A program made the position numbers and the translations under genes. The notes beneath the pieces are model-generated. The model searched no databases, was not told the DNA's origin, and worked only from the letters and a program-made list of their open reading frames with translations. From an uncultured Bordetella sp. (lineage in GTDB: Bacteria; Pseudomonadota; Alphaproteobacteria; Micropepsales; Micropepsaceae), in assembly GCA_964494505.1 (NCBI GenBank), contig CAZBRO010000015.1, positions 27,876 to 91,875 on the forward strand: a stretch of DNA of 64,000 nucleotides. The letters run 5' to 3'. Positions 27,927 to 48,337 of this stretch are shown piece after piece (position 1 is the first letter of the stretch; every line of letters starts with the position of its first letter).

Positions 27927-28211
27927 CAGAACCGCTGAAAGGCCGCGCTCAGTCTGCTCCGCGAAAAGAACCGCCCCTGTTCCGCTCTGCCAAGACTGCC
28001 CCCCAGGGCGCATCGGGATTGTCATCGGCAGCGGGCGGGTGATTGAAAGCATCCGCACGCGCCAACCTCGCATCGCGCGGGCCTAGGCATTTATGCGATC
28101 ACGAACCCGGCGGAGGCTGCGTCGCAAAGTGGCACTGTGGGGCGCCATTGACGCGCGTCTCAGCCCTTGAATACCGTTGGCCTCGGGCAGGAGGAAAGCA
28201 AGGTCGGTCGC

Positions 28212-30578
28212 ATGCTTGCGAAAGCGCTCTCTCTTCATCAAGAAGGCAAGCTTGATGAAGCGTCGGCCCTTTACCGCAAGATCCTGGCTCTCAACCCGAG
28301 AAATGCCGATGCCCTCCATCTGCTCGGCGTGATCGAACTCCAAAGAAAGAACCCATCAGCAGCCATCGAATTGATAGACCGAGCGATCGAGATCGACCCA
28401 AACAACGCAGTGTTTTTCTCTAACCGCGGCCTCGCTTTCGAAGGCCTGAAGCGTTTCCATGATGCACTCGCCAGCTACGGTCGTGCGCTGACGATCCAGC
28501 CCGGCTACGCCGACGCGCTCAATAACCGCGGCAATGCACTTCGAGCCCTGAACCGCTTCGATGACGCATTGGCGAGCTATGCTCGCGCATTGGCTGTCAA
28601 GCCCGACTACGCTGACGCTCTGAACAATCGGGGTGCGACGCTGAGCGATCTGAAGCGTTTCAGTCAAGCACTCGCCAGCTACGATCGTGCACTGGCGATC
28701 AAGCCCGACTATGCCGATGCGCTCAATAACCGAGGTGCAGCGCTAAGCCGCCTGCACCGCTTCGATGACGCCATCGACAGCTACGATCGCGCTTTGGCGA
28801 TCAGGCCTGACTATGCGGAAGCACTCAATAACCGCGGCAACGCGTTGAGCGAACTCAAGCGCTTCGACGACGCGATCGACAGCTATGATCGTGCCTTGGT
28901 AATCAGACCCGACTATGCCGAGGCGCTCTATAACCGGGGTGCAGCGCTGAACGACCTGAGGCGTCTTGAAGACGCACTGGTAAGCTACGATCTCGCCTTA
29001 GTCTGCAAACCCGACTATGCCGAAGCGCTCAATAGCCGGGGCGTCGCACTGAGCGGTCTGAAGCGCTTCGATCAAGCGCTTGCAAGCTATGACCGTGCTC
29101 TGGCGATCAAGCCAGATTATGCGGAAGCGCACTATAATCGTGGCAACGTCCTCAGCGATTTGAAGCACTTTGACGAGGCACTTGCCAGCTATGATCGCGC
29201 GCTGGCGATTGAGCCCAACTATGCGTTCCTTATTGGAATGCGGCTACATTGCAAGATGAGGATTTGCGATTGGCGTGCAATCGCCGAAGATACCTTTCTG
29301 CTTTCCGAACGGATTGAGTCGGGCGAAAAGGCGTCACTGCCATCCTCAGTCCTCGCCACGCCGTTGCCGGCAGCACTCCAGAAGAGATGTGCAGAGATCT
29401 TTATACGGGAAGAACATCCGCGAAGTTCCGTTCTACCAGACTTCAAAGCCCCGTACGCGCATGAGCGAATCCGGTTAGGCTATTTTTCGGCGGATTTTCA
29501 CAGCCATGCCACCGCCTATCTGACCGCCGGTTTATTTGAGCATCACGACAGAACCCAGTTTGAATTGATTGCCTTTTCGTTTGGTCCAGCGCAAGAAGAT
29601 GCGATGAGAACAAGGTTAAAGACCTCGTTCGCCCGATTTCTGGAGGTGAACACTCTTTCGGATAAGGACATCGCCTCGCTCGCCCGCAGCCTTGAAGTTG
29701 ACATAGCCATCGACCTTAAAGGATTTACGCAGGACAGCCGGACAGGCGTGTTCGCGATGAGACCGGCGCCGGTTCAGGTCAGCTATCTCGGATACCCCGG
29801 AACGATGGGGGCGGATTACATCGACTACCTGATCGCAGATGCAACTCTTATTCCAGAGGAACATCAAAAACACTATGCTGAAAAAATTGTCTACCTTCCT
29901 GACACATATCAAGTCAATGACTCAAAGCGCCTGATTGCCAACAGGCACTTTACCAGGACCGAATGTGGCTTGCCTGAAGATGGCTTTGTCTTTTGCTGTT
30001 TCAATAACAACTATAAGATTACCGGCGATATATTCGATGTATGGATGCGCCTATTGACTGCGGTCGATGGGAGCGTCCTATGGTTATTTGAAGATAATGC
30101 TTTTGCCATTAGGAATTTGAGAGCGGAAGCGCAGGCTCGCGGCATCGCACCTGAACGGCTTGTGTTTGCCAAGCGGATGGACTTGCCGGAGCATTTGTCT
30201 CGCCATCGATTGGCGGATTTGTTCTTGGACACTCTTCCCTACAACGCACATACCACTGCCAGCGACGCGCTCTGGGCTGGGTTGCCGGTCCTGACGTGTG
30301 TGGGCAAGACATTTCCAGGCAGGGTTGCGGCAAGCCTGCTCAATGCGGTCGGCCTGCCGGAGTTGATAACGCGAGACCTGGATGCGTACGAATGCTTAGC
30401 ACGCGACCTCGCCACGGATCCGAGTAAATTGCGGTCGATAAGGGACAAATTGGCGGCCAATCGTCTTACCCATCCATTATTCGACACAGCGCGCTTCGCC
30501 AGACATATTGAATCGGCCTATGCGTCGATGTGGACACGTCAACAGGCCGGGCTCACACCTCAGCGCATTTATGTTTAA
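28212..30578 (+). CDS. TPR-repeat protein fused to a GT41 (O-GlcNAc transferase / SPINDLY-like) glycosyltransferase domain
   Basis: No signal peptide. There are about 10 TPRs, then GYFSADFHSHAT, LPDTYQVND, FCCFNNNYKI and LDTLPYNAHTTASDALWAGLPVLTC. These match the eukaryotic OGT block ...CNGHTTGMDVLWAGTPMVT. The start was chosen at ATG 28212. Confidence 0.9.
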   Translation: MLAKALSLHQEGKLDEASALYRKILALNPRNADALHLLGVIELQRKNPSAAIELIDRAIEIDPNNAVFFSNRGLAFEGLKRFHDALASYGRALTIQPGYADALNNRGNALRALNRFDDALASYARALAVKPDYADALNNRGATLSDLKRFSQALASYDRALAIKPDYADALNNRGAALSRLHRFDDAIDSYDRALAIRPDYAEALNNRGNALSELKRFDDAIDSYDRALVIRPDYAEALYNRGAALNDLRRLEDALVSYDLALVCKPDYAEALNSRGVALSGLKRFDQALASYDRALAIKPDYAEAHYNRGNVLSDLKHFDEALASYDRALAIEPNYAFLIGMRLHCKMRICDWRAIAEDTFLLSERIESGEKASLPSSVLATPLPAALQKRCAEIFIREEHPRSSVLPDFKAPYAHERIRLGYFSADFHSHATAYLTAGLFEHHDRTQFELIAFSFGPAQEDAMRTRLKTSFARFLEVNTLSDKDIASLARSLEVDIAIDLKGFTQDSRTGVFAMRPAPVQVSYLGYPGTMGADYIDYLIADATLIPEEHQKHYAEKIVYLPDTYQVNDSKRLIANRHFTRTECGLPEDGFVFCCFNNNYKITGDIFDVWMRLLTAVDGSVLWLFEDNAFAIRNLRAEAQARGIAPERLVFAKRMDLPEHLSRHRLADLFLDTLPYNAHTTASDALWAGLPVLTCVGKTFPGRVAASLLNAVGLPELITRDLDAYECLARDLATDPSKLRSIRDKLAANRLTHPLFDTARFARHIESAYASMWTRQQAGLTPQRIYV
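28452..29230 (+). repeat. about 7.6 tandem copies of a 102-bp unit (homogenised 34-aa TPRs) inside the GT41 gene
   Basis: Successive 34-aa units read RF(D/H/S)(D/Q)A(L/I)(A/D)SY(D/A/G)RALA(I/V)(K/R)PDYA(D/E)ALNNRG.ALS.L(K/N/H). The period is exactly 102 bp starting at cgt 28452. Confidence 0.85.
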
Positions 30579-32225: not shown

Positions 32226-33152
32226 TCAGAAATCTGCCTTGTCCGCAGTAGGGACGAACGCATCGTTCCTTCCAGCGAAGAAATCAAACGGGTTCTCGGA
32301 GCAAACGTTTTCCTCCCATGCCATTGCCGGGCGCTCGTATGTGATCGCCCCAGACCAGGGCATCGTGAAGACGCCTTCATCCTCCACGGTAAAAACAACT
32401 TGGAGGCGTTTGCCCCGATACGAAAGGTCGGAAGCGGTATCGGGAACGCGGGCATTTTCTTTCAGATTGCGCGCCACCGCTGCCTGGGCCTCATCGTATT
32501 CGACCATCCGATAGCGCTCCACCACGTGGAGCGCCGAGCTGAAGGGGGTGCCGTACATATCGACCATCGCAAATGGTCTGTCGGCCTTGATCCCGACTGT
32601 GTCGATTACCAGTGTGTCACCTTCGTAATGACCGACCGAATCTCCGTACCAGGACGGGGCAACGCGTACCGGATGAGGCTCATTCAAGCGCACATGGCGA
32701 AATTCATGATTGCGCAGATAGAGGAAAACGATCTCCCGCGGCTGTTGCAGCATCTGCATGCCGGGCTGGAAAAAAATGTAGGGTACCCCGGAGGGCCAGC
32801 ACCGGTTGCTTGGCGTCGGAGACGTCGTACCGGACAACGCGATTTCACCGATTCTTTTCACGGTTGCCGCCGCCCCGGGCTTCAGAATGGGATTGGTGTA
32901 GTCGCCAACGAATTGACCGTTGTTTCCCGCCCCGTTCGCGCGGCGCGATCGGTTGAAGACAGGCCCTGGTCCCGATGCTGGTGGCTCGATGCCGGGAAAG
33001 TATGGATGGACCCACATGCCGGAAAAATCAGGTATGGAGACGGCTCCTTCCGCATGGCCCGCCGCAAGGGACACCATTGGACCGAGGGCGATCACCGCCA
33101 CCGCGGTCCCCAATGCCGCCAAGAGAACGAGGCTCCGGCGCAGCCGGTTCAT
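32226..33152 (-). CDS. secreted PDF-tail family protein P4
   Basis: Signal peptide, then AVSIPDFSGMW. Core: NRCWPSGVPY, SWYGDSVGHYEGDTLVIDTVG, LHVVERY, NVCSEN. The terminal residues are FVPTADKADF. Confidence 0.85.
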   Translation of the reverse strand: MNRLRRSLVLLAALGTAVAVIALGPMVSLAAGHAEGAVSIPDFSGMWVHPYFPGIEPPASGPGPVFNRSRRANGAGNNGQFVGDYTNPILKPGAAATVKRIGEIALSGTTSPTPSNRCWPSGVPYIFFQPGMQMLQQPREIVFLYLRNHEFRHVRLNEPHPVRVAPSWYGDSVGHYEGDTLVIDTVGIKADRPFAMVDMYGTPFSSALHVVERYRMVEYDEAQAAVARNLKENARVPDTASDLSYRGKRLQVVFTVEDEGVFTMPWSGAITYERPAMAWEENVCSENPFDFFAGRNDAFVPTADKADF

Positions 33153-35303: not shown

Positions 35304-35614
35304 TCTATTCCTCCCCAGTTTCCGTTCCACAAGCTTAATCGAAAAACTAGCTTATCGGCGCGTTTGATATCAAATCTTGCATGCAATTGGGATTATCCTC
35401 CGGGCTTCGCCTGCCCTGGGACCCGCGGTCCGGTGGTTGTCGATTTGGGAGCGTGTGTGATAATCAAACGATTCTATCGCGCGCGAAACCAACACGCGTA
35501 GTTGCCGTCTTTGCCGGCACGTGACCGAAAGCGAGGCAACAGTTTTGGGGCCGTTCAGATGTGTCCAAGTGCAATCCGCCACGGAGCGCGGCGCCGCGCT
35601 TGAGATATCCGTCC

Positions 35615-37900
35615 ATGCACGACCGATTTGATGCCGCGCTGGCTGCCCAGAAGGCGGGCAATCTCGCCGAAGCGATGCAGATTTGCCGGGACATCCTCAA
35701 AGCCGACGCAAGGAATTTCAAGGCGCTCTATCTGCTCGGTTATGTCCATGCACAGTCCGGCGAGATCGCCGAAGCGGAGCGCCTTATTGCGCAAGCGATA
35801 GGCGTCAATCCGCGCTCGCCGGATGCCCTGTACAATCGCGGCTGTCTGCTCCAGAAGCTGGATCGGCTCCAAGACGCGATTGTTTGCTTTGACAGCGCTA
35901 TCGCACTCAACCCCTATTATATCGACGCCCTGATCAATCGCGGCGTCACCCTGGCAGCGCTTAAGCGATACGGCGAAGCGGCCTCCGCTTTGGACCGAGC
36001 GTTGCGCATTCGGCCCGGCGATGCCGCGGTATGGATAGAGCGCGGAAATGCTCTCACCGGAGCGCGGCGGTATTCGGAGGCGCTTTCCAGCTATGACAAG
36101 GCGCTTGAGGTCAGGCCGAATTATGTGGAAGCCTGGGAAAATCGGGGGCGCGCTCTGATGCTGCTGGAGCGCCACTCCGAGGCGTTGACGGATTTCGACA
36201 AAGTGTTAGCGGCGGATCCGCGGAGCGTGGCCGCGTGGACCGGCCGCGGCAATGCACTTGGCGAACTTCGCCGCGACGGGGAAGCGCTCGCCGCATTCGG
36301 CCGCGCACTAAGGGGCAGGCCGGACAGCGTCGGGGCGCTCCTCGGCCGCGGCTATGTGTTGCTGCGGCTCATGCGCTACGAGGAAGCGATTGCCGATTAC
36401 AATAGGGCGCTCGCCATCGCCCCCGATTCTGTCCAGGCGCTCATCAACCGCGCTGCCGGTTTATTCGAACTGAAGCGCCTTGATGAGGCGATCCGCGATT
36501 ACGAGCGGGCGCTCGCGCTCAATCCGGACATCCCCTTTGCCCGCGGCAATCTCGCTTACTACAAGCTGCACGCTTGCGATTGGCGCCATCTTGAAGAAGA
36601 GCGAAACGCCATCTCTGAAGGCCTGCGTGCGGGGAAATCCATCGTATCGCCCTTCGTCAGTGTAGCGCTTTCGCCCTCAGCCGAGGAGCAATCACGCTCC
36701 GCTCACGTATGGATCGCAGACAAGTATCCACCAGCGCCGCCTTTGTGGCGGGGCGAAATCTACCGGCACGATAGGATGCGGATTGCCTATCTGTCGGCGG
36801 ATTTCAATGCCCATGCGACGGCGCATCTCATGTCGGGTGTCTTCGAGCACCATGATCGGCAGCGCTTCGAGACCATTGCGATCTCCTATGGTCCGGACGA
36901 TGAAAGCGGGATGCGAACGCGGCTGCAGACGGCATTCGATCGCTTCATCGATGTGCGTACAAAGAGCGATTTCGAAATCGCGGCGCTCTTGCGTCAGCTC
37001 GAGGTGAATATCGCCATCGATCTTAAAGGGCTGACCAAGGATGCCCGCAGCGGAATCCTGAGCCACCGTCCGGCGCCCATACAAACCCATTATCTGGGTT
37101 ATCCGGGGACCATGGGGGCGCCCTTTATGGACTATATCATCGCCGACGGGATCGTGATCCCGGAGGATCAGCGGCGATTCTACACCGAGCAGGTGGTCTA
37201 TCTTCCCGATACGTATCAATGCAACGACGGAGCGCGGGACGATACGGGGCCGGCAAAAGCCCGGGCCGAATACGGATTGCCCGAAACAGGCTTCGTCTTT
37301 TGCTGCTTCAACAACAATTTCAAGATTCTCCCCGACCTGTTCAAAATCTGGATGCGCCTTCTCGCCCGGGTCGATGGCGCGGTCCTGTGGCTCATGGCCG
37401 ACAACGCCAACGCAGCCCGCAATCTCGCTCAGGCCGCGAGCGAACACGGCATCGCGCCGGATCGATTGATTTTCGCGCCGCGCATAGGCGTGGCCGATCA
37501 TTTGGCGCGGCACCGCGCGGCCGATCTCTTTCTCGATACACTTCCCTATGGCGCCCACACCACGGCAAGCGACGCGTTATGGGCGGGACTTCCCGTCATT
37601 ACGTGCCTCGGTTCCACGTTCGCGGGCCGTGTGGGCGCAAGCCTGTTGTCGGCCATCGGCTTGCCGGAATTGGTCGCCCGGTCGCTCGAGGAATACGAAG
37701 CCCTAGTGCTGAAGCTTGTCCGCGATCCGGCAGCGCTTGCAGCGATCAAGGAGAAGCTGGCGCGCAACCGCGACACGCACGCGCTCTTCGATACATCCCG
37801 GTTCACGCGCAATCTCGAAGCCGCGCTGATCACGATGTGGGAGCGTCATCGGCGGGGTGAACCGCGGCAAGGCTTTACCGCCGCGTCCTCGCGCGAGTGA
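35615..37900 (+). CDS. TPR-repeat protein fused to a GT41 (OGT/SPINDLY-like) glycosyltransferase domain, second copy
   Basis: Start at ATG 35615. TPR array, then AYLSADFNAHAT, LPDTYQCND, FCCFNNNFKI and LDTLPYGAHTTASDALWAGLPVITC. It is a paralog of 28212..30578. Confidence 0.9.
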   Translation: MHDRFDAALAAQKAGNLAEAMQICRDILKADARNFKALYLLGYVHAQSGEIAEAERLIAQAIGVNPRSPDALYNRGCLLQKLDRLQDAIVCFDSAIALNPYYIDALINRGVTLAALKRYGEAASALDRALRIRPGDAAVWIERGNALTGARRYSEALSSYDKALEVRPNYVEAWENRGRALMLLERHSEALTDFDKVLAADPRSVAAWTGRGNALGELRRDGEALAAFGRALRGRPDSVGALLGRGYVLLRLMRYEEAIADYNRALAIAPDSVQALINRAAGLFELKRLDEAIRDYERALALNPDIPFARGNLAYYKLHACDWRHLEEERNAISEGLRAGKSIVSPFVSVALSPSAEEQSRSAHVWIADKYPPAPPLWRGEIYRHDRMRIAYLSADFNAHATAHLMSGVFEHHDRQRFETIAISYGPDDESGMRTRLQTAFDRFIDVRTKSDFEIAALLRQLEVNIAIDLKGLTKDARSGILSHRPAPIQTHYLGYPGTMGAPFMDYIIADGIVIPEDQRRFYTEQVVYLPDTYQCNDGARDDTGPAKARAEYGLPETGFVFCCFNNNFKILPDLFKIWMRLLARVDGAVLWLMADNANAARNLAQAASEHGIAPDRLIFAPRIGVADHLARHRAADLFLDTLPYGAHTTASDALWAGLPVITCLGSTFAGRVGASLLSAIGLPELVARSLEEYEALVLKLVRDPAALAAIKEKLARNRDTHALFDTSRFTRNLEAALITMWERHRRGEPRQGFTAASSRE

Positions 37901-37901
37901 C

Positions 37902-38780
37902 TTAGAAATCCGGCCTGTCCGCACGTGGGATCGGCGGCATGCCGATGTCGACCGGCGTGGCAGACGTTTCGGCGCAAACTTCCTCATAGAGATATGGGAG
38001 ATCGTTGCCCGATTCGTTGCCGGCATGCCGGTATTTCTGCAGCGCATGCCAGGGCTGGGTGAAGGCGCCCGGGTCGTCGACCGTGACCTCCACCTCAAGC
38101 GATTTCTTGTCGATCATATGGTAGCGCTCCACCACATGCATCTGCTCCGTATGTGGCGTATGGTAATTGTCGACGGTGGTCTTCGCGTTCATTCCGATCG
38201 TGTCCACGACCAGCGTGTCGCCGTTCTCATAATGGCCGACCGATTCGCCGAACCAGGACGGCTTCAGATTCTTGGAATGCTCCTGATTCAGGAACACGCG
38301 GCGCACCTGATGGTCGTTCTGCCAAACCAGCCAGACTTCCTTCGGCGTCTGCACGAAGAAGAAAGGCGTGATGCGGACCAGCAGCATGTTCGGAACGCCC
38401 GCGGGCCGGCATGAATTCGCGACCGTGTAGAGCGGTTTGCCGGACAACACCTGGTCGTTGACCTTTTTCAGCTCATCCTTCACCCACGGCATCAGCGCGG
38501 GATGACTGGTGTCCGACACGCGGAAGGTCTGCCGCTGCCCGTTGCCGCTTTCCATCACGTAGGGATTTTTCGGATCGGACCTGACGGGCCCGAGGCCGCT
38601 CTTGGGGGGGAAGAAGTCATTGCTCATCGTGACCCAGCCGCCGCCATCCATATAAAAATCGGGGACGGAGCCGGCGCTTTGGGCCGCGACGGTGGATGCC
38701 GCCCCGGTGAGAAGGAATCCGCTTGCAGCCAAGCATGAGGCGATGGCACAGAGCTTCTTCGCCGGCAAGGATTTGGGCAT
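37902..38780 (-). CDS. secreted PDF-tail family protein P5
   Basis: ATG 38780 with a GGGAGG RBS gives MPKSLPAKKLCAIASCLAASGFLLTGAAS..., then SVPDFYMDGGGW. Core: NSCRPAGVPNM, SWFGESVGHYENGDTLVVDTIG, YHTPHTEQMHVVERY, EVCAET. It ends MPPIPRADRPDF. Its stop codon is 1 nt from the stop of the convergent GT41 gene. Confidence 0.9.
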   Translation of the reverse strand: MPKSLPAKKLCAIASCLAASGFLLTGAASTVAAQSAGSVPDFYMDGGGWVTMSNDFFPPKSGLGPVRSDPKNPYVMESGNGQRQTFRVSDTSHPALMPWVKDELKKVNDQVLSGKPLYTVANSCRPAGVPNMLLVRITPFFFVQTPKEVWLVWQNDHQVRRVFLNQEHSKNLKPSWFGESVGHYENGDTLVVDTIGMNAKTTVDNYHTPHTEQMHVVERYHMIDKKSLEVEVTVDDPGAFTQPWHALQKYRHAGNESGNDLPYLYEEVCAETSATPVDIGMPPIPRADRPDF

Positions 38781-38916
38781 ATGACCTCCCCTTCGTTCCA
38801 ATGGCTCACGGCTGTTCCGGTCCGATGGCCGGCCGCCGATTGGGGATAGCATAATCCGGCGATCGCGCTCGAACAACGTCGCCAAGCCGGCGCGGGGGAC
38901 CAAGGATCGAAGAGGC

Positions 38917-39816
38917 TTAGAAGTCCGGCATGTCCGCCCGCGGGACAGGGGGCATGCCGATATTGACCGGTGTCTGCGCAGTCTCGGCGCACACCTCTTC
39001 GGACAAAAACGGTTCGGCGTCGCCGGCCAATTCGCCGAGCTCCGGAGTGCGGCGCGACTTGAAGTCCACGCGGCCGTATTTCTGCAAAGCATGCATGGGC
39101 TGCGTAAAGGCGCCGGGGTCCTCCACCGTGACCTCCACTTCCATCGCATTGCCGAGCTTATGGAAGCGCTCGATCACATGCAGCTTGTCGGTATGGGGCG
39201 TATGGTAGTTGTCGATGGTCGTCTTGTCGTTCAAACCGATCGTATCGACGACCAACGTATCGCCATTTTCATAGTGACCGACGGATTCGCCAAACCAGGT
39301 TGGCTTCAGATTCTTGGAATGCTCCCGATCCAGGAACACGCGCCGCACCATGTGGTCGTTTTGCCAGATCAGCCACACTTCTTTCGGCGTTTGGAGGAAA
39401 AAGAAAGGCGTCAAGCGCACGAGCAGCATATTGGGCACACCGGCGGGCCGGCACGAATTGGCCACCGTGTAGAGCGGCTTGCCAGTCATGACCACATCGT
39501 TTTGTTTTTTCAGCACGTCCTTGACCCATGGCATCAGGGCCGGATTGTTCACGTCCGCGACCCGGAAGGTCTGCACCCGGCCCGCGCCGGTTTCCATCAC
39601 GTAGGGATGGGACGCATCGGCCCCCACCGTCGCAAGTCCGCTGTGCGGCGGAAAGAAATCATTGCTCCGCGTAATCCAGCCGACGCCGTTCTCGTAAAAA
39701 TCCGGGATGGAACTGTCCGGCTTGGCGGCGCCTTGCGCCAGCACGACTCCGGTGCTTGCAATCGAGGCAAGCAGGGCCCCCGCAACCAGGCACGAAACGC
39801 GGGCGCGAACCTTCAT
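38917..39816 (-). CDS. secreted PDF-tail family protein P6
   Basis: ATG 39816 gives MKVRARVSCLVAGALLASIASTGVVLAQG, then SIPDFYENGVGW. The core is the same as in P5. It ends MPPVPRADMPDF. Confidence 0.9.
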   Translation of the reverse strand: MKVRARVSCLVAGALLASIASTGVVLAQGAAKPDSSIPDFYENGVGWITRSNDFFPPHSGLATVGADASHPYVMETGAGRVQTFRVADVNNPALMPWVKDVLKKQNDVVMTGKPLYTVANSCRPAGVPNMLLVRLTPFFFLQTPKEVWLIWQNDHMVRRVFLDREHSKNLKPTWFGESVGHYENGDTLVVDTIGLNDKTTIDNYHTPHTDKLHVIERFHKLGNAMEVEVTVEDPGAFTQPMHALQKYGRVDFKSRRTPELGELAGDAEPFLSEEVCAETAQTPVNIGMPPVPRADMPDF

Positions 39817-40316
39817 TTTCGACACGGATTCAAGCACCGGAAGACCCCTCTTGTTTTCATCATTTTGCGGAATCCTAACGCAGATATGACGGGCGGGCAA
39901 CGACGGCGGCCGATTCGTGCTCATTCGCCCCCCCGATCTTGTACAATAGAGCAGAAGCGACCCCGACCTAACCGATGCTTCACAACCGAGGAGCCGGAAC
40001 CTTTGTTTCGAGTTCTGCAAAGTGGCCATGAGCGACCACGATGGCTGGCGCGATTTTGAATATCGTGGGCGCGTGAAGAATTATCCTGCAATCGATGTCG
40101 CATCAGACGTGCCCACATGGTCAGGCGACGCGGCGGCATCAGAGCCCGTGGTATCCTTCTGCCCGGCTGTTCCCGCAACCGGCCCGCGGGGACTGGAGCG
40201 CCGTGCTCCACGAAATATCATCGGACCTGAAGGCGCTTCTCGCGAGGCCGCACCGGGGAAGCCCTGACGATCAGTTCACGCTTCTCTCGAACGTCTCTCC
40301 TCTTGCGAGGCTCGCT

Positions 40317-40643
40317 CTACTTCTTGTCGCCTGCAGGACCGCCATTCCCGATATGTTCGGTGAGATACTTGGTCACGGCGTCGACTTCCTCAGGGAACAG
40401 CTGAGCGCCGTTGGAAACCATCTGCTCAACGGTCTTGCGCCATTCTGCGGGTGTCTTGCGCGCATTTAGGATGCGATCCGAGGAATGACAGGCCCCGGCA
40501 CAGTTCTCGATCACCAATTGACGGCCCTCGCCATCCGGCAATTTGCTCGCCAGCGGATCGGATTCCCTCGCCTGCGCGGCCTCCGCGAGACCAAGGCAAA
40601 AGACAAAAATGCCCGCCAAACGGCGGCCGGCACGATGACTCAT
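40317..40643 (-). CDS. small secreted cytochrome-c-like protein with a CxxxCH motif
   Basis: ATG 40643 with a GAGGAGGAG RBS. Signal peptide MSHRAGRRLAGIFVFCLGLAEAAQA. The mature roughly 83 aa contain ENCAGACHSSDRILNARKTPAEWRKTVEQMVSNGAQL. From memory this resembles the haem-binding domain seen in the quinohaemoprotein amine dehydrogenase alpha subunit (CxxCH ... R.T..W..T..RM). It lies 56 nt downstream of the ThDP gene on the same strand. Confidence 0.6.
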   Translation of the reverse strand: MSHRAGRRLAGIFVFCLGLAEAAQARESDPLASKLPDGEGRQLVIENCAGACHSSDRILNARKTPAEWRKTVEQMVSNGAQLFPEEVDAVTKYLTEHIGNGGPAGDKK

Positions 40644-40699
40644 ATCCCAATTCTCCTCCTCACAACCGCCCAGCCGAAATTGCTGCGCCGTTCGATGGC

Positions 40700-42601
40700 T
40701 CATACCTGCTTCGTGCGCCTCTCGGCCACCGAGTATTTCGGATACCACGTCGATTCGGCGAGCGGGCCGACACGTTCGGCCACCACGTCGAGCACGAAAG
40801 GCCGGCCGTCCTTCAACTCCCGCACGCCGCGCTTGAGCGCATCGGCAAGCTCGGCCGGCTTGGTCACGGTCGCCCCCTTGACGTCGAAGCCCTTGGCCAA
40901 TTGTTCGAAGCTGACATCGGGGTTGCCGAGATAGCTTCCCATGTCCTGCTGAGCCTCGCGCATTCTCGGCGCGTTGGGCATCACGCGCATGCGCGTATCG
41001 TTGAAGCTTCGGTTGTTGAAAACGATATACATCACGGGCGCCTCATGGCGTCTGGCTGCCCACAGCGCTTCGACTTGGCCCATCAGGAAAGCGCCGTCGC
41101 CGAGCAGGCAGACGACCTGACGATCGGGCTTGGCCATCTTGATGCCGACGGCGGCGCCAACCGACCATCCGAGCCCCGACCCGACCGTGCGACCGAACAG
41201 CTCCTTCTTGCCGCGGCCGAATTCGAACCACGGCAAGGTGCGCGGCATAGCCGAGTTGAACTCGTGTGTGATGATCGCATCCTGCTCGAGCACAAGGTTG
41301 GCTTCATATGCCACGCGCTCCCAGGCGATGGGCACGTCGTCGCGCCGCTTTGCAAGCACCTGCTCGCGGGCCGCCTGCACTCGTTTGTTGAAAGCGCCCG
41401 ATTCCTGGATGCGACCCTTCGCCGCCGCCTTCTGCGCGGGCGTCATCGATTGCCCCAATGCGTCGACGAGCATCTTGGTGGATTCTTTGAGATCGGCGAT
41501 CACCGCAAGGTCGGTGGGGTTGACGAGCGCCACGTCATTGGGCGCGGTGCGGAAATCGATGAGCTTCCACTCTCTTGGAATCGCCGGCCCGGCACCGCCC
41601 TGATAGAAATTGTGCGCGCCCATGTTCAACATCAGATCGGCGTCGCGCAGCGGCCGAAGACCTGCAACCGCCCTATCTGTCTGGCCGATATAGAGCGGGT
41701 GTCCGGTCGGGAAATCCGTATACGGGCTGATGCCCTGCACGACCTGAAGACCCGCGAGTTCGGCAAGCTTCACCACGTCGTCATAGGCATCCGAGCGCCA
41801 CACTTCGTGGCCCACGGTCATGAACGGCTTCTTGGCCTCCAGCAGCATTTTCGCTGTCTGCTCCACCAGCCGCGCTTCGGGCTTCGTGCGAATCGGAAGG
41901 GTAAAATATTCCTTCGGGATAATTTCGGCCCTGGCGACGGCGCCACCATTCGGAATCGCCATGTAGCAGGGGCCGCCAGGCGGCGTCATCGATATCCGGA
42001 TTGCGTTGCGCAGGATTTCCGGGATACGGCGGGGGGCCGGGACCTCGAAACTCCAGCGCGTGAATTGTTTGGTGATCTCGACAATGTCGTCTACCGATTC
42101 GAAGCCGTCATGCCCCAGATCATCCTGCCCCGTCGTGAAGGATGACACGACCAGCGGGACGCCATCCTTCTTGGCATTGAACATGTTCAGCATCTGGTGC
42201 GCGGTGCCAACATCGCCATGGATGTTGACGAAGGTCGGATCGTTGCTCGCAAGCGCATAGCCGGACGCGATCGCGGTCACGATGTTTTCTTCGGTCGCCA
42301 GGATCAGATGGATGTCGTTGTCCCCCACCATGGCATCGAGCATCGGCCCCGAACCCGTGCCGTTGCCGTAGAAGACGTGCTTGACGCCGGCTGCCTTGAG
42401 CTGCTGCACCAGAAGATAGCCGCCGGTGCCTTCCACGGTGCGGAATCGCCCAGTCGGCATTTCCGCGGCTTCGACCATCGGCGCCAAAGCCGCCAAAACG
42501 GATTCGGCCGCTGCGACCGTGAAGCCGGCCGTGGCCATTCCTTTCAGGAAGCCACGACGATCGAGGTTCCTTGAAATATAGGCGTGCACCAAGTCTCGCA
42601 T
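40700..42601 (-). CDS. thiamine-diphosphate-dependent enzyme (acetolactate synthase / pyruvate oxidase superfamily) with a twin-arginine export signal
   Basis: 633 aa. The N-terminus SRNLDRRGFLKGMATAGFTVAAAESVLAALAP matches the Tat consensus (S/T)RRxFLK. It is followed by the three-domain ThDP architecture, including the ThDP motif LLGDGAFLMGQVEALWAARRHEAPVMYIVFNN (GDG...NN). Confidence 0.9.
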   Translation of the reverse strand: MRDLVHAYISRNLDRRGFLKGMATAGFTVAAAESVLAALAPMVEAAEMPTGRFRTVEGTGGYLLVQQLKAAGVKHVFYGNGTGSGPMLDAMVGDNDIHLILATEENIVTAIASGYALASNDPTFVNIHGDVGTAHQMLNMFNAKKDGVPLVVSSFTTGQDDLGHDGFESVDDIVEITKQFTRWSFEVPAPRRIPEILRNAIRISMTPPGGPCYMAIPNGGAVARAEIIPKEYFTLPIRTKPEARLVEQTAKMLLEAKKPFMTVGHEVWRSDAYDDVVKLAELAGLQVVQGISPYTDFPTGHPLYIGQTDRAVAGLRPLRDADLMLNMGAHNFYQGGAGPAIPREWKLIDFRTAPNDVALVNPTDLAVIADLKESTKMLVDALGQSMTPAQKAAAKGRIQESGAFNKRVQAAREQVLAKRRDDVPIAWERVAYEANLVLEQDAIITHEFNSAMPRTLPWFEFGRGKKELFGRTVGSGLGWSVGAAVGIKMAKPDRQVVCLLGDGAFLMGQVEALWAARRHEAPVMYIVFNNRSFNDTRMRVMPNAPRMREAQQDMGSYLGNPDVSFEQLAKGFDVKGATVTKPAELADALKRGVRELKDGRPFVLDVVAERVGPLAESTWYPKYSVAERRTKQV

Positions 42602-42832
42602 GCGACCCTCCCCAGCTCCGTTTTGTCTCCGGCAGAATTACCCACCGCAGGGCCCTTCGGCACGTCGGCGCGACGCAAAACTGACATTCACAGCAGGCTG
42701 AAATCGCGGCGCGCGAACGAAAAAAGAAACGAACCGACCAAGAGCGATTTATTCCTGAAAATATGCGCGCAACCGGGCATTTGGGTCAAGGCAAGTACTG
42801 GAACGCCGGCGAATTCTGAGCCACAAATTCCT

Positions 42833-44035
42833 ATGACCTCAGAAGATCTCTTGCTGGAAGCGCAACATCTTGCCCGGCGTGGGCAGGTGCCGGCAGCAGC
42901 CGAAATATACCACCGCATCCTGCGTACAAATCCGCGGCACTTCGAGGCCCTGTCCGCACTCGGCGCCATCTATTTCCGCCATGGACAGTTCGACCGGGCG
43001 CAATATCTCCTTGCCGAAGCGTCGAAAATCGACCCGCTGTTTACTGACGGCCTCTGCCTGCGCGGCATCGCTCTGTTGCAGATGAACCGTCATAGTGAGG
43101 CGCTCGCTTGCTTCGACCGCGCGTTGGCCGTCCGGCCCGATTTCGTCGAAGCGCTGTGCAATCGCGGCATCGCACTCCAGGAGATGCAGCGATATGACGA
43201 GGCGCTTGCAACCTTCGACACTGCGGTGGCGATTCAACCCCGGCACGCGCTAAGCTGGAATAACCGCGGCAGCACGCTCGCTGCGATGCAGCGAAACGCC
43301 GAGGCGCTGGAAGACTTCGAGCGGGCGTTGGAGATCGATCCCGATCTGAAGGAAGCAAGGGAGAACCGCGAGCAAGTCTCCTTCAAGCTGGGCCGTACCA
43401 GCCGTGCTCCGGCGGTCTACCTGCAACATCTGTTCGATCGGTTTTCCACCTTTTACGACGACAACATGCTGAAGACGCTCGGTTATGTCGGCCACACGCA
43501 TTTGCGCAAGCTGGCCGAGCGCGTCGTTCCCGGGATCGCCCCGCCATTGCGGATTCTCGACCTCGGCACCGGCACAGGATTGGTCGGCGAAGCCTTCAAG
43601 GACCTTGCTGCCGGCGGATGCCTCGATGGCATCGATCTTGCCCCGCTGATGATCGAAAAGGCCCGGGAACGCGGCGTTTACAACGATCTGATCCTGGGCG
43701 ATCTGGAAGTGGTGCTGATGCGTGACGGTCCTTCCTATGATCTCATCCTGTCCGCGGACACGATGATTTACATCGGGGATCTCGCACCCACGCTGACCGG
43801 TGTCGCACGACGCCTGAGGCCCGGGGGATTCTACTTCTTCATGGTGGAAAGCGGGGACGGCGAGAGCTGGGAATTCACCGCGAATTCCCGGTACCGCCAC
43901 GGCCCCGATTACTTGCGCGCCGCTGCCGCGCGCGCGGGCCTTGAATTTGTCGACATCATGGATTGCACGCTGCGCACGGAATTGTCGGTCCCGGTGCCCG
44001 GATTCGGGGTGGCGCTGTCAAAGCCCGTCGCCTGA
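42833..44035 (+). CDS. TPR-repeat protein fused to a class I SAM-dependent methyltransferase domain
   Basis: Start at ATG 42833. About 6 TPRs of the same subtype as the GT41 proteins (FEALSALG, FVEALCNRG, ALSWNNRG). Then SAM motif I ILDLGTGTGLVGE, and LILSADTMIYIGDL and LRPGGFYFF. Confidence 0.85.
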   Translation: MTSEDLLLEAQHLARRGQVPAAAEIYHRILRTNPRHFEALSALGAIYFRHGQFDRAQYLLAEASKIDPLFTDGLCLRGIALLQMNRHSEALACFDRALAVRPDFVEALCNRGIALQEMQRYDEALATFDTAVAIQPRHALSWNNRGSTLAAMQRNAEALEDFERALEIDPDLKEARENREQVSFKLGRTSRAPAVYLQHLFDRFSTFYDDNMLKTLGYVGHTHLRKLAERVVPGIAPPLRILDLGTGTGLVGEAFKDLAAGGCLDGIDLAPLMIEKARERGVYNDLILGDLEVVLMRDGPSYDLILSADTMIYIGDLAPTLTGVARRLRPGGFYFFMVESGDGESWEFTANSRYRHGPDYLRAAAARAGLEFVDIMDCTLRTELSVPVPGFGVALSKPVA

Positions 44036-44038
44036 GAT

Positions 44039-44938
44039 TCAGAAATCCGGCTTGTCCGCCCGCGGAACAGGCGGCATGCCGATGTCCACCGGTTGAACGG
44101 CTGTCTCCGCGCAAATCTCCTCCGACAAGAAGGGCTCCGCATCGGCCGCTATGTTGCCGAGTTCCGGCGTACGGCGGGATTTGAAATCGACCCGGCCGTA
44201 TTTCTGCAATGCATGCCAGGGCTGGGTGAACGCGCCCGGATCCTCGATCGTGACTTCCACCTCCAGTGTGGTACCAATCCGGTGGAAGCGCTCCACCACA
44301 TGCAGCTTTTCCGTATGCGGCGTGTGGTAATTGTCGACCGTCGTCTGTGCGTTCATCCCGATCGTGTCCACAACCAGCGTATCGCCATTCTCGTAATGGC
44401 CGACGGATTCGCCGAACCAGGACGGCTTCAGGTTCTTGGAGTGCTCCTGATTCAGGAACACGCGGCGTACCATGTGATCGTTCTGCCAGATCAGCCAGAC
44501 CTCTTTCGGCGTCTGGACGAAAAAGAACGGCGTCGCGCGCACCAGCAACATGTTCGGGACGCCGGCCGGGCGGCAGGAATTGGCAACCGAGTAGAGCGGC
44601 TTTCCCGACATAACCTGGTCATTGATAGTCTTCAGCGCATCTCTGACCCACGGCATGAGGGCGGGATGGCTCAGATCCGCGACCCGGAATGTCCCGCCGC
44701 CGGGCGCGCCATTCGGCCTGTAAGGATGGGCGGGATCGTCTTTGACGGGACCAAGCCCGCTTTTGGGCGGCAGGAAGTCGTTGCTCCGGGTGATCCATCC
44801 AATCCCATTCTCGTAAAAATCGGGAATGGAGGCATTCGGATTGCCGCTGTCGGCCGCCATCGTGATGCTTATGCAGGCGACCGAGGCAAGAAGGCCGCCC
44901 GCAACGAGAGACCGTATGCTGGAGACGGATCGAAACAT
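44039..44938 (-). CDS. secreted PDF-tail family protein P7
   Basis: Signal peptide MFRSVSSIRSLVAGGLLASVACISITMA, then SIPDFYENGIGW. The core is as in P5 and P6. It ends MPPVPRADKPDF. Its stop is 3 nt from the stop of the convergent TPR-methyltransferase gene, and the gene lies 153 nt downstream of TBDR2 on the same strand. Confidence 0.9.
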   Translation of the reverse strand: MFRSVSSIRSLVAGGLLASVACISITMAADSGNPNASIPDFYENGIGWITRSNDFLPPKSGLGPVKDDPAHPYRPNGAPGGGTFRVADLSHPALMPWVRDALKTINDQVMSGKPLYSVANSCRPAGVPNMLLVRATPFFFVQTPKEVWLIWQNDHMVRRVFLNQEHSKNLKPSWFGESVGHYENGDTLVVDTIGMNAQTTVDNYHTPHTEKLHVVERFHRIGTTLEVEVTIEDPGAFTQPWHALQKYGRVDFKSRRTPELGNIAADAEPFLSEEICAETAVQPVDIGMPPVPRADKPDF

Positions 44939-45091: not shown

Positions 45092-48000
45092 CTACCAGGT
45101 CTTGGTCAAAACGACGTTGAACACGCGGCCCACATCGGTCTTGAACTGGTCATAGGCAGTGGGCGTGTGGCCTGAAGTGCCCGGCGCGTATTGGAATGCC
45201 GGGTGCCTGTCCATGATGTTATTGATCACGAAATTGATTTGGATGTTCTTGAGGGAATCTCTCGTGGGCATATCGCCGGTGTTGTAGCCGAACGACAAAT
45301 CGAACGTGTACTGCGATGGCGTTATGCCGGTAAAGCCGGTGATGGCACACGGAAACGTGCCCGTCGGCGTTGTGCCGCCGGCTACGGAGCATTGATTGTT
45401 GACATTGGGGGGCGATGGCTGGGTGGAATAGTAATGGCCCTGATAATTCATAAAGCCCGTCACATCCCACTGCCCGTCACTCCAGCCCAACCGGGCTCGA
45501 TAAGCCATCCGCGGGGCCGTCAACACGCCATTGATAGGAAGTCCACCGATGGAAGCGATGGTGGTCGTTATGGTTTCTATCGGATCCTGGCCCGGAGCGT
45601 TTTGCGTCTTGCTGATATAGTAGGTGCCCACGATTCCGGTATTGAAGGCGCCAAGATCGCCTGCGTCGTAATCGTAGCTTGCCTGCCAGTCGATGCCCGT
45701 GAACTTCTCCGAGCCGTGGTTGATGACGCCCGCGTCGTTGATCCAGTAGATCAGCGTTTTGGCTGCGGGCAAGGCGGATGCATTTCTCGGGTTGAACAAG
45801 ATCGAATCAACCATCGCCTCGAACGGCGCACAGGCGGTTGGGTTGCCGTTGGCCGTGGCGCAGCCCTGATCGTTGGGCAGGCCGATACCGGCCAGATCGC
45901 TCGGAAGAATGTAGGAGAAGCGGCTGTTCGGATCGGAGAAGGTCGATCCGCTTGCGCCGAAGGAGTTCAGCACGTTGTTGATCTTGACGCTGAACCAGGT
46001 CGCCTGAAGGTCGAGCCCCTTCAAGAAGGTGGTCGGCGCGAACTCCCCTCCGAGGACATAGTTGATCGACGTCTCCGGGCCGAGATCGGTCCCGCCGTGG
46101 AAACCGTTGGGCCTGAGGGATTTCAGAGGACCGCCGCCCGGCGAGAGGCCGCCCAGGTTCTTGTTGCAAACACTCGATCCTAACGCCGCCACCAGATCGG
46201 CTGCTGCCGACCCCGGCGTCGCGGCGTTGTTCACGCACGGAAGCGCAAAAGCCGAAGTCCCGAGCTGCAGATTCGTCGGCAGGTTAAAGGCCTGAATATT
46301 ATTCACGTAATCGGCCGAGTATTCGCCTGCCTCGGGGAGCCGGAATGACGAGTTCCACGAGCCTTTGGCACTAAGTCCCAAGAGCTCCGACAACACCCAG
46401 GTGAAGCCCACTTTCGGGTTGCTGGTGTTGCCCTGGAGATCGCCCGAATATTCGTCGTGGCGCCAGGACAATTCGAGATCGAGCCTGTCGATCAGCGGCG
46501 CTTTGAAATTCTCGCCGAAGACCGGCACGTTCAACTGAGCGAACCCCGCCCAGACCTGGAAGGGATTGTAGGCGAGGATCGGCGACAGGACCAAGCTTGG
46601 CGAGCCGGAGTTCACCAAGAGCGTGTTCTTGAAGACGTCGCTTCTATAGTCACCGCCGACAGCAGCCCTGACAGGACCGGCGGGCAGATCGAACAACGGA
46701 CCGTCGAACGTCACGTTGCTTTCGTCGGAAGCGTATTCCGAGTACTCGTTCATGATGCCGCGGATATAGTTCAGCGTATCCGGCGAGTTGCACTGGAAGG
46801 CGGTCGGGTCGCAGAACAGGTTTAGATATGGCACGCCGGCTGGCTTGGTGAATGTCGAGATGCCAGGCGCGGTACCCGATGGGGGCGTCGAGGCGATCGT
46901 CCAGCCCAATGCTGCCGAAACGGCATTCACGTTCGCAAGGTGGGTGTCATCGATACGGGTGTCGTCCCACGTCCGCGCATAATATATGTCGCCGTGCCAG
47001 TTGAGAGGCAGGTCGAATTTCACTCCGGCTTGATAGCGCGCGGCATATTCTTCATAGGCCACGTAGGGGGGGATTTCGATGCCGAGATTATAGGCGACGC
47101 GCAAACCGCTGGGCGCGCCCACGGGATAATAGGGATTGACGGTGGGCACGGCGATCGACTGCAGGAGCAGCGTGTTGACCGGCTTGGCGCTCGTCGGGTT
47201 GAGGATTTGGCCCCGGCGATTGCTGTAGAAACCCTCGCCATAAAGGGTAACCCCCGGAATCAATCTCTGATCGAATGTCGCGGTTGCCGCATTGCGCTGC
47301 TGGCCGCCTTCCTCCTGCGAGATCAATAAGGGGTCGAAGATATTGCGCGTACCGTTGGTGCCGCTATTGGCCGCGACCGCGAAGGTCGACCAGTTCAGCA
47401 CGCCGGGGGCGCTGGAGGGAGCGGTCGGGCCGAGACCATTGTTCAGTGAAGATGCGAAATCGCCGCCGGCGCCGGCCGGAATGGCAAAGCAATTGGTGCA
47501 ATTCCTGCCAAGGCTCGCCTTGAATCCATTGGCCGAATTGGCCGTGGCGCCCACACTGATCGTGCCCGGAATCGAGGAACCGATCGGCGTCAAATCGTCG
47601 AGCCCCCAGGGGCGATAATCGCTGGTGTAAGCCGAATGTTTGCTGCCGGAAACCGGCTTGTCGTCGTACCATTCGTAGCTCAGCGTAATGTCGCCGCCGT
47701 CCCAGGTACGGCCCCATAATTGCGCGGCTTGATAGTGCGTGGGGCCGTCGCCGGCCGCGAAGTTCAGCTGGGTAATCGCGCCGTCATAGCCCCGCCTCAA
47801 AATGACGTTGATCACGCCTGTGACCGCGTCCGATCCGTAAGTCGCCGATGCCCCATCCGCGAGCAGGTCGATGCGATCGACGGCAAGCGAGGGAATCACA
47901 GAAGGGTCATGTAAATTGAGATGATCGCCCTGAATCGGAAAGCGCACACCGTCAACCATCATCAGCGATCGTGGCGCGCGGGCTTCGTCGATGCCGTGAA

Positions 48001-48337
48001 TGTTGATTTGCACCGCTCTCGATTGGTGTCCGCCATTGTTGATGGCGTCCGAGAGTGTGGGAATACTGACGGCGGGAACGTTCTTGAACAGGTCGCCGAT
48101 CTTGGCCGCGCCGGTTGTCTGGAAATCCTGCAGGCTCAGATTCGTCACCGGCACGCCGACCGCAACGGCGCCGTGAATGAGCGATCCCGTTATCAGCACC
48201 TGCTCGGGAGGAGCCTCTGGGCTGACTTGCGCCGTTTGTGCTTGCGCCGTCTGTGCCTGAGCCCCGATGACACTTGCCATCGCAAATAAAGAAGCCGTCC
48301 CCATGAGCGTGGAAATTCTGGACGCAACTGGATTCAT
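45092..48337 (-). CDS. TonB-dependent receptor (TBDR2), large
   Basis: GGGAGGG RBS and a signal peptide. Motifs: PEQVLITGSLIHG, VDRIDLLADGASATYGSDAVTGVINVILRRG. 1081 aa, with C-terminus ...VLTKTW (terminal aromatic). Confidence 0.9.
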   Translation of the reverse strand: MNPVASRISTLMGTASLFAMASVIGAQAQTAQAQTAQVSPEAPPEQVLITGSLIHGAVAVGVPVTNLSLQDFQTTGAAKIGDLFKNVPAVSIPTLSDAINNGGHQSRAVQINIHGIDEARAPRSLMMVDGVRFPIQGDHLNLHDPSVIPSLAVDRIDLLADGASATYGSDAVTGVINVILRRGYDGAITQLNFAAGDGPTHYQAAQLWGRTWDGGDITLSYEWYDDKPVSGSKHSAYTSDYRPWGLDDLTPIGSSIPGTISVGATANSANGFKASLGRNCTNCFAIPAGAGGDFASSLNNGLGPTAPSSAPGVLNWSTFAVAANSGTNGTRNIFDPLLISQEEGGQQRNAATATFDQRLIPGVTLYGEGFYSNRRGQILNPTSAKPVNTLLLQSIAVPTVNPYYPVGAPSGLRVAYNLGIEIPPYVAYEEYAARYQAGVKFDLPLNWHGDIYYARTWDDTRIDDTHLANVNAVSAALGWTIASTPPSGTAPGISTFTKPAGVPYLNLFCDPTAFQCNSPDTLNYIRGIMNEYSEYASDESNVTFDGPLFDLPAGPVRAAVGGDYRSDVFKNTLLVNSGSPSLVLSPILAYNPFQVWAGFAQLNVPVFGENFKAPLIDRLDLELSWRHDEYSGDLQGNTSNPKVGFTWVLSELLGLSAKGSWNSSFRLPEAGEYSADYVNNIQAFNLPTNLQLGTSAFALPCVNNAATPGSAAADLVAALGSSVCNKNLGGLSPGGGPLKSLRPNGFHGGTDLGPETSINYVLGGEFAPTTFLKGLDLQATWFSVKINNVLNSFGASGSTFSDPNSRFSYILPSDLAGIGLPNDQGCATANGNPTACAPFEAMVDSILFNPRNASALPAAKTLIYWINDAGVINHGSEKFTGIDWQASYDYDAGDLGAFNTGIVGTYYISKTQNAPGQDPIETITTTIASIGGLPINGVLTAPRMAYRARLGWSDGQWDVTGFMNYQGHYYSTQPSPPNVNNQCSVAGGTTPTGTFPCAITGFTGITPSQYTFDLSFGYNTGDMPTRDSLKNIQINFVINNIMDRHPAFQYAPGTSGHTPTAYDQFKTDVGRVFNVVLTKTW

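Follow-up and report, generated by a model that had tools for sequence, protein, structure and literature searches.

A twin-arginine-type thiamine diphosphate enzyme encoded beside a small c-type cytochrome: a candidate two-subunit periplasmic dehydrogenase

The sulfite:cytochrome c oxidoreductase SorAB consists of a cofactor-loaded catalytic subunit exported by the twin-arginine translocation (Tat) pathway and a small cytochrome c exported by the Sec pathway. Among enzymes that use thiamine diphosphate (ThDP), the pyruvate oxidases POX and PoxB carry out an oxidative decarboxylation that proceeds through a hydroxyalkyl-ThDP enamine to a carboxylate and delivers the electrons to the respiratory chain, and pyruvate:ferredoxin oxidoreductase (PFOR) oxidizes the ThDP enamine without flavin, one electron at a time, through a ThDP radical to a metal centre. 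To our knowledge, ThDP is not among the cofactors recognized in Tat substrates. Full-text literature searches returned no report of a periplasmic or Tat-exported ThDP enzyme, nor of a ThDP:cytochrome c oxidoreductase, and they yielded no exception to the statement, made in a first-pass annotation of the DNA analysed here, that the characterized members of the superfamily are cytoplasmic or lie on the inner face of the membrane. Here we describe two adjacent genes on the minus strand of a 64,000-nt stretch of contig CAZBRO010000015.1 (the window, in whose coordinates all positions are given), which encode a ThDP enzyme with an N-terminal twin-arginine extension and a small c-type cytochrome. 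We moderately favour reading the pair as a two-subunit periplasmic dehydrogenase, comprising a Tat-exported ThDP subunit and a cytochrome c subunit in a SorAB-like arrangement. The combination of a decarboxylase-superfamily ThDP enzyme with a SorAB-like periplasmic dehydrogenase/cytochrome organization would, judging from the sequences, be new.

The gene for the catalytic subunit (40700-42601, minus strand; ATG at 42601, stop TGA at 40702-40700) encodes a protein of 633 aa, and the cytochrome gene (40317-40643, minus strand), encoding 108 aa, follows 56 nt downstream on the same strand; the open reading frames (ORFs), their coordinates and their lengths are those first annotated. The large protein belongs to the decarboxylase superfamily that includes benzoylformate decarboxylase (BFDC), acetolactate synthase (ALS) and POX, and the three-domain architecture and GDG...NN motif originally attributed to it were borne out. 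The Pfam domains TPP_enzyme_N (75.3 bits), TPP_enzyme_M (63.4 bits) and TPP_enzyme_C (105.9 bits) all match above their cut-offs, and the ThDP/Mg-binding motif (41012-41101, minus strand) comprises G501-D502-G503, 25 further residues and N529-N530; in the family alignment G501, D502, G503 and N530 are invariant and N529 is nearly so. The cofactor-activating glutamate, conserved in the ThDP family, is present as E105, aligned with E47 of BFDC, and at least 90% of the sequences keep H301, which corresponds to BFDC His281. The catalytic subunit thus appears to keep all that is needed for formation of a hydroxyalkyl-ThDP enamine (E105, GDG…NN and H301). The remaining BFDC catalytic residues are only partly kept: T82 and S84 stand where BFDC has S26 and E28, and H70 is matched by H128, which is not conserved in the family.

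The best PDB matches of the enzyme are benzoylformate decarboxylases (E about 1e-43, about 24% identity), with alignments that begin at residue 66. An AlphaFold2 (AF2) model built from 38 homologues reached a mean predicted local distance difference test score (pLDDT) of 85.8 and template-modelling (TM) scores of 0.84-0.87, normalized to the target, against BFDC structures; it includes an extra long helix at about residues 388-418. The C-terminal tail, STWYPKYS.AE.RTK, is also conserved in the family. Every NCBIfam model stays below its cut-off on the enzyme: the best two, the BFDC model PRK07092 (250.6 bits) and PRK08327, both score ~250 bits against cut-offs of 493 and 456, and the POX models rank low. 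Because no model reaches its cut-off, the window protein is, as far as sequence profiles can tell, a decarboxylase-superfamily ThDP enzyme outside every curated family. Whether the enzyme carries flavin adenine dinucleotide (FAD) is answered differently by different parts of the protein. The whole-protein and fold searches favour the FAD-free BFDCs, whereas the middle domain taken alone matches the FAD-binding glyoxylate carboligase (E 1.4e-9) about as well as it matches FAD-free BFDCs (E 6e-9); its GAHNFYQGG stretch has no flavin element of the RFDDR/RWANR type.

The catalytic body is preceded by an N-terminal module (residues 1-46; 42464-42601, minus strand). It opens with a conserved n-region (MRDLVHAYISRNL), which leads into the twin-arginine motif L-D-R-R-G-F-L-K (residues 13-20; 42542-42565, minus strand). 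In the stretch GMATAGFTVAAA-E-SVLAALAPMVEA that follows, an h-region of weak hydrophobicity, with E33 in it, comes before Pro41 and a VEA/EAA cleavage-like site. About 60 full-length homologues, 37-77% identical, share the start methionine and the N-terminal pattern MR.LV..YL...LSRRGFLK.MAAAGFT.AAAESVL..L.P…A; most of them have S-R-R-G-F-L-K where the window protein has D-R-R-G-F-L-K (residues 14-20). R15, R16 and F18 are invariant among 38 sequences in the same identity range, and conservation of the module spans several phyla. Conservation at the protein level extends from residue 1 (MRDLV...) through the twin-arginine motif and persists down to 35-40% overall identity. A start downstream of the motif, raised in the first-pass annotation as a way in which the export reading could fail, does not agree with these alignments: since the N-terminus is conserved from residue 1 across homologues, the true start lies upstream of the two arginines. 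The signal is likewise conserved in the orthologues, and the least conserved segment of the whole enzyme, residues 47-57, comes directly after it. This segment lies around the predicted cleavage region and carries indels, and its column identity is 0.39, compared with 0.67 for residues 1-46 and 0.61 for the catalytic body; in some members a long Pro/Ala-rich linker separates the module from the catalytic domain.

A profile built from residues 1-47 alone retrieved 696 cluster representatives at 50% identity from among 1.84 billion proteins. At least 61 of the 149 best matches that were examined are recognizable ThDP proteins, and nearly all the remaining ones in that group are fragments too short or too frameshifted to reveal a catalytic domain. 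One metagenomic protein of 339 aa (P0212) carries the module (MRTLVKMFLEKEISRRYFVKEMMALGFSVTAANSVL…) on a Ca2+-dependent PI-PLC-C1 domain (55.6 bits), from which it would follow that the module is movable between catalytic domains. A separable, portable module joined to the enzyme by a floppy linker looks, on this evidence, like a targeting signal and not like part of the fold. A 723-aa ORF elsewhere in the window (2464-4635, minus strand) has a classical Tat-like N-terminus, MMTFTNLSRRQFVATALTAGGGFALGVGIFAPAEA; the source genome appears also to use conventional Tat signals.

The 108-aa protein begins with a signal-like, Sec-type sequence, MSHRAGRRLAGIFVFCLGLAEAAQA followed by RE (…LGLAEAAQA/RE), giving a predicted signal peptide of residues 1-25 that ends AQA/R (40569-40643, minus strand); the homologues have equivalent hydrophobic N-termini ending A-x-A. 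It matches PF09098 (Dehyd-heme_bind) with 29.7 bits against a cut-off of 25.2, and the NCBIfam SorB model with 30.1 bits, below the cut-off of 93, so that by these scores the protein is SorB-like and not a SorB orthologue. A profile of 16 homologues found the haem domain of quinohaemoprotein amine dehydrogenase (QHNDH; 1jju_A) with E 6.6e-10 and, weakly, SorB (2blf_B) with E 0.23. The haem-attachment motif noticed at the outset is present, in a different spacing from that of a standard motif: C48-A-G-A-C52-H53 (40485-40502, minus strand) is CX3CH, not CXXCH. CAGACH and Met75 (40419-40421, minus strand), the candidate distal haem ligand, are invariant in the 16 homologues. In the alignment with SorB and the QHNDH haem domain, CAGACH corresponds to CAACH with a one-residue insertion between the cysteines, and Met75 is paired with a methionine in both. 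The spacing differs among clades: CXXCH occurs in most, CAGACH in the alphaproteobacterial clade that includes the window, CSRACH in Binatia (L029) and CGQSCH in some Terriglobia (L019/L056), while the partners of the more distant members, whose ThDP enzymes are 35-42% identical, have CXXCH or, in some cases, CX4CH at the aligned position. The CX2CH, CX3CH and CX4CH variants all occupy that same position, and CX3CH and CX4CH motifs bind haem in other cytochromes. The AF2 model of the small protein is weak (pLDDT 62), and a Foldseek search with it gave nothing significant, SorB being the top match at E 2.1. The conservation of the ORF, its two invariant features and its homology to the QHNDH haem domain indicate that it is real, a point on which the first-pass annotation had made its proposal depend. 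We take the small subunit to be a probable Sec-exported monohaem c-type cytochrome of the SorB/QHNDH-alpha haem-domain type, its haem binding being predicted by homology.

The association of the two genes was examined in 84 non-redundant loci, drawn from 80 GTDB genomes and from metagenomic contigs; the genomes are nearly all metagenome-assembled genomes (MAGs) from Stellaceae, Xanthobacteraceae, Acidobacteriota, Woeseiaceae, Chromatiales, Binatia and other groups. Clustering of all neighbours within 5 kb identified the cytochrome as the only widely conserved one. Where linked, the cytochrome gene is always on the same strand and directly upstream or downstream of the ThDP gene, often overlapping it or only a few nt away, and its product carries one, two or three repeated haem domains. 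An intact RR-x-F-[LIVM] motif coincides with an adjacent same-strand cytochrome gene in 42 of 51 loci (from Alphaproteobacteria, Gammaproteobacteria, Acidobacteriota and Binatia), at least five of the other nine being cut by a contig end, and a cytochrome gene accompanies the degenerate motif RR-[DQE]-F-[G/A/S/T] in 0 of 33 loci; these counts by motif class are not phylogenetically independent. The idea that Tat signal and cytochrome gene would go together across the clade, put forward as a check when the pair was first noticed, is in keeping with this division, which is the pattern expected if an intact export signal and a periplasmic acceptor belong together. Because the two-gene arrangement recurs in 42 loci from several phyla, the pairing is not due to chance, and the two genes are very probably linked in function.

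The cytochrome-less relatives (subfamily B; L004, L005, L025, L031, L037, L044, L050, L053, L060, L067 and others) have a homologous N-terminus in which the motif has degenerated to RR-[DQE]-F-G-K, and they lack both Pro41, which is kept in the c-region only of the cytochrome-linked subfamily, and a TAT_signal match; they may represent a lineage that lost or changed export. An apparent fusion of the ThDP enzyme with the cytochrome, at 7750-8244 of locus L010 in a long-read MAG, was rejected. It is an artefact of a frameshift towards the 3' end of the ThDP gene: out-of-frame residues stand in place of the conserved C-terminal tail, and the cytochrome still has its own signal peptide.

A similar pairing was found in a second ThDP family. 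Two of its members, P0071 and P0073, are only distantly related to the window protein (23-24% identity) and have textbook Tat N-termini (…GRRGFLKGAA…). Directly downstream of each is a gene for a cytochrome c of 113-114 aa belonging to the Cytochrome_CBB3 family, with the haem motif CYQCH. To the loci L088 (6001-8305) and L089 (3159-5415) of this family a metagenome scan added 80 (L090-L169), making 82 in all, and every N-terminus of this family that lies on a contig reads [DGN]RRxFLK. A mono- or dihaem cytochrome c is encoded immediately downstream in 65 of the 75 loci with room for it, the other 10 having none; the remaining 7 of the 82 leave no room for one. The family resembles the window pair in joining a Tat-type ThDP enzyme, about 640 aa long, to a small cytochrome c encoded directly downstream, and differs from it in having a textbook [DGN]RRxFLK signal with no long conserved n-region and a Cytochrome_CBB3 partner (CYQCH/CYECH) in place of the PF09098 protein. 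On sequence evidence, two divergent lineages of Tat-type ThDP enzymes are thus each paired with a small cytochrome c, and the cytochromes belong to two different families. Assignment of either ThDP family to a curated one was rejected, both falling below every NCBIfam cut-off.

From the domain content, motifs, conservation and gene linkage found in the window and its relatives, we infer the following course of export, haem binding, oxidative chemistry and electron flow. The large subunit would fold, dimerize and bind ThDP-Mg2+ in the cytoplasm; dimerization is placed there because ThDP active sites lie at dimer interfaces. The Tat pathway would then export it by means of the RR-bearing N-terminal module, a step suggested by the sequence of the module and its conservation, and the small subunit would be exported unfolded by Sec and receive covalent haem at CAGACH, as in its homologues. 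In the periplasm, the substrate bound by the ThDP subunit would be a 2-oxo acid, with an aldehyde or an alpha-dicarbonyl compound as possible alternatives, and the hydroxyalkyl-ThDP enamine would form as in benzoylformate decarboxylase and pyruvate oxidase. Instead of being protonated and released as an aldehyde, the enamine would be oxidized by the cytochrome in two one-electron steps, the resulting acyl-ThDP would be hydrolysed to the carboxylate, and the reduced cytochrome would pass its electrons to the respiratory chain. Oxidative decarboxylation of a periplasmic 2-oxo acid, or oxidation of an aldehyde or dicarbonyl, seems to us the most economical mechanism for such a pair. A periplasmic location of the ThDP enzyme is, in our judgement, likely; that it acts there as a dehydrogenase reducing the cytochrome is somewhat better supported than doubted.

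Several observations weigh against this reading. The h-region is interrupted by the charged E33, which leaves 12 uncharged residues after K20 (G21-A32) and ten more beyond it, and TATFIND-type rules call for an uncharged h-region of 13 or more residues; position 33 is polar or charged throughout the family (E here; R, Q, K, D or N elsewhere). The Tat hidden Markov models (HMMs), although the best matches of the N-terminus, stay below their cut-offs, with 16.6 against 22.7 bits for Pfam TAT_signal (PF10518) and 13.9 against 16.7 bits for TIGR01409. The Tat signal, described at first as almost perfect, is good but falls short of that description, given the glutamate in its h-region and its HMM scores. 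The N-terminus is, moreover, as conserved as the catalytic core and is modelled by AF2 as helices (pLDDT 74-85). The closest relatives by sequence and by fold are non-oxidative, FAD-free benzoylformate decarboxylases, and a redox cofactor bridging ThDP and haem is not evident in the sequence. Genes for cytoplasmic-looking enzymes adjoin subfamily B: L004 lies beside genes for an arginase-family protein, an S9/S15 peptidase and a TonB receptor, with homologues of these neighbours in six to seven related gammaproteobacterial loci, and L005 lies beside an aminotransferase gene. Finally, the gene neighbourhoods of the 84 loci do not converge, within 5 kb, on one substrate.

The HMM scores need to be read beside a control. 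On the Pfam TAT_signal model the textbook Tat N-terminus of P0071 scored 17.2 bits and a relative of the window protein in L029 scored 20.3 bits; because the textbook control also falls below the cut-off, a sub-threshold score carries little weight, and TAT_signal is the sole Pfam match when the N-terminal 58 residues are scanned alone. The conservation of the module is unusual for a cleaved signal. It is seen more often, at this strength, in anchors that are not cleaved or in Tat signals recognized by dedicated chaperones, so the module could stay on the protein. The Tat pathway might then insert it as a signal anchor of the kind known from Rieske proteins, or it might act as a docking element; the dehydrogenase would be fixed to the inner membrane on its periplasmic side and would still reduce the cytochrome. 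The column identities, the AF2 helices and the conserved polar residue in the h-region fit this explanation, as do several clades with no clear A-x-A site (e.g. ...AAVEPLVPGAELPE). Set against them, Pro41 and an A-x-A-like site (VEA, AQA or AHA), with the variable linker after it, are retained in the window protein and in most members from Proteobacteria and Binatia, and the charged residue makes the h-region short and polar for a stable membrane anchor. We consider an uncleaved module unlikely.

Slightly more improbable, in our view, is that the enzyme is exported and non-oxidative, a BFDC-type periplasmic decarboxylase, lyase or carboligase, with the cytochrome serving another step or another enzyme. 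This alternative draws on the BFDC kinship already described, on the conserved equivalent of His281, the residue that protonates the enamine in BFDC, on the lack of evident flavin-type motifs in the ThDP enzyme and on the existence of cytochrome-less relatives. It does not readily explain why the cytochrome is the sole widely conserved neighbour and is strictly adjacent in both gene orders, often overlapping or nearly abutting, nor why a second ThDP lineage pairs independently with a different cytochrome c family; nor do the 5-kb neighbourhoods of the 84 loci include a third conserved redox enzyme for which the cytochrome might work. Order-independent adjacency that evolved twice, together with the absence of such an enzyme from these neighbourhoods, leads us to disfavour it. 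Least probable is the absence of any export signal, with the ThDP enzyme in the cytoplasm or on the inner membrane face and the cytochrome linked through co-regulation only, for although E33, the Tat HMM scores and the homologous N-terminus of subfamily B, with its cytoplasmic-type neighbours and no TAT_signal match, point that way, it is opposed by the split between 42 of 51 loci with the intact motif and 0 of 33 with the degenerate one, by the variable linker and the occurrence of the portable module on a PI-PLC protein, which argue for targeting, by the similar Pfam score of the textbook control and by the unambiguous Tat signals of the second family, which has the same architecture.

Within the preferred reading of a periplasmic ThDP dehydrogenase, a bolder and rather doubtful proposal is that the pair stands for a third class of ThDP oxidoreductase, beside the flavin-dependent pyruvate oxidases and the iron-sulfur PFORs, at which at least two lineages would have arrived. 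In this class a c-type haem would oxidize the enamine directly, by way of a ThDP radical and with neither flavin nor iron-sulfur cluster. If no flavin is involved, the direct passage of electrons from ThDP to haem would be a chemistry new to the superfamily, with PFOR as its sole conceptual precedent.

The two genes probably form one operon, since no terminator-like site was found between them in a promoter and terminator scan of 39800-43100, in which counts were not above those of shuffled sequence. The ThDP gene is preceded by a Shine-Dalgarno-like GGGGAGGG (42606-42613, minus strand), 4 nt 5' of its ATG, and the 56-nt spacer between the genes (40644-40699, minus strand) contains AGGAGGAG at 40660-40653, 9 nt 5' of the ATG of the cytochrome gene; in the relatives L001, L002 and L003 the spacer measures 0-10 nt or the genes overlap. 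The pair is divergent from a gene for a methyltransferase fused to tetratricopeptide repeats (TPR), in the orientation initially described. As listed, with GTG at 42584, the ORF of this gene overlaps the ThDP start by 18 nt because the listing gives the longest possible ORF. It is one of four TPR-fused enzymes in the window (28167-30578, plus; 35561-37900, plus; 42584-44035, plus; 54713-56731, minus), a set made up of two TPR-GT41 glycosyltransferases, one TPR-methyltransferase and one TPR-sulfotransferase.

The window further encodes seven secreted-looking paralogues of roughly 250-300 aa, with ORFs of up to 415 aa from the first possible start (21575-22399, plus; 22417-23295, plus; 23436-24200, plus; 32226-33152, minus; 37902-39149, minus; 38917-40029, minus; 44039-44938, minus), none of which has a Pfam or NCBIfam match. 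Two of these genes come immediately after the cytochrome gene, and another is found upstream of the ThDP gene. A homologue of these proteins is encoded near the ThDP gene in the Terriglobia loci L019/L056 and not in the close alphaproteobacterial relatives (60-75% identical), where the TPR-methyltransferase, the GT41 proteins and the secreted paralogues are all absent beside the pair. A bicupin protein of about 400 aa is encoded beside the ThDP-cytochrome pair in L003 (10225-11427), in the Acidobacteriota loci L023 (4305-5546), L034 and L045 and in the gammaproteobacterial locus L082; its gene is preceded by one for a TonB-type outer-membrane barrel in L023 and L034, and in L003 the protein has a Tat-like N-terminus (…LSRRRLMEALAIPLAAVTVSAQ).

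TonB-dependent receptor genes recur next to the pair, three of them in the window (24987-27926, plus; 45092-48337, minus; 56799-59492, minus), and genes for a tripartite ATP-independent periplasmic (TRAP) transporter adjoin the pair in close relatives. The two are loosely consistent with delivery of a substrate to the periplasm and uptake of a carboxylate product. A substrate could not be assigned from context, the genes for TonB receptors, the bicupin protein, the TRAP transporter, FAA-hydrolase and luciferase-like proteins each being restricted to particular clades.

Relatives of the enzyme occur in at least 80 GTDB species, almost all represented by MAGs of soil and marine Proteobacteria, Acidobacteriota and Binatia, and the homologues are annotated at source as "acetolactate synthase-like" or "benzoylformate decarboxylase". 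If the preferred reading of a periplasmic dehydrogenase is right, this large family would gain a function, ThDP catalysis would extend to the periplasm, Tat biology would acquire a new cofactor class, and electrons would take a new route in passing from ThDP to haem c. Should the third-class proposal also prove true, many uncultured soil and marine bacteria could draw respiratory electrons from 2-oxo acids or related carbonyls without importing them. Such enzymes might also serve as ThDP biocatalysts for oxidations, with cytochromes or electrodes as coupling partners.

Compared with described systems, the pair unites features that are otherwise found apart. In SorAB of Starkeya novella (PDB 2BLF), as is predicted for the window pair, adjacent genes encode a Tat catalytic subunit and a Sec monohaem cytochrome, and the SorB chain (2blf_B) is both the top structural match and a weak profile match of the window cytochrome; SorAB differs in that its catalytic subunit contains molybdopterin, as opposed to ThDP here, and in that SorB has CXXCH where the window protein has CX3CH and scores far below the cut-off of 93 for the SorB model. 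The best sequence relative of the cytochrome, the N-terminal dihaem domain of the QHNDH alpha subunit (PF09098; PDB 1JJU), is, as proposed for the window cytochrome, a periplasmic haem c domain that takes electrons from a catalytic cofactor, but there it is fused in tandem to a large quinoprotein subunit, whereas here it is free-standing, in one to three copies, and accompanies a ThDP enzyme. On the catalytic side, BFDC (MdlC) of P. putida (PDB 1BFD) is the closest solved relative, with about 24% identity, a TM score of about 0.85 and the same three-domain ThDP architecture; it is cytoplasmic and non-oxidative and has neither an N-terminal extension nor a cytochrome partner. PFOR has an unrelated domain organization and is a cytoplasmic, coenzyme A-dependent, low-potential enzyme with [4Fe-4S] clusters, features of which none was seen in the window pair. 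The chemistry proposed here is closest to that of POX and of the pyruvate:quinone oxidoreductase PoxB, which belong to the same superfamily; these work in the cytoplasm or attached to the membrane's inner face and have FAD as their obligatory acceptor, whereas the window enzyme would work in the periplasm with a c-type cytochrome in that role.

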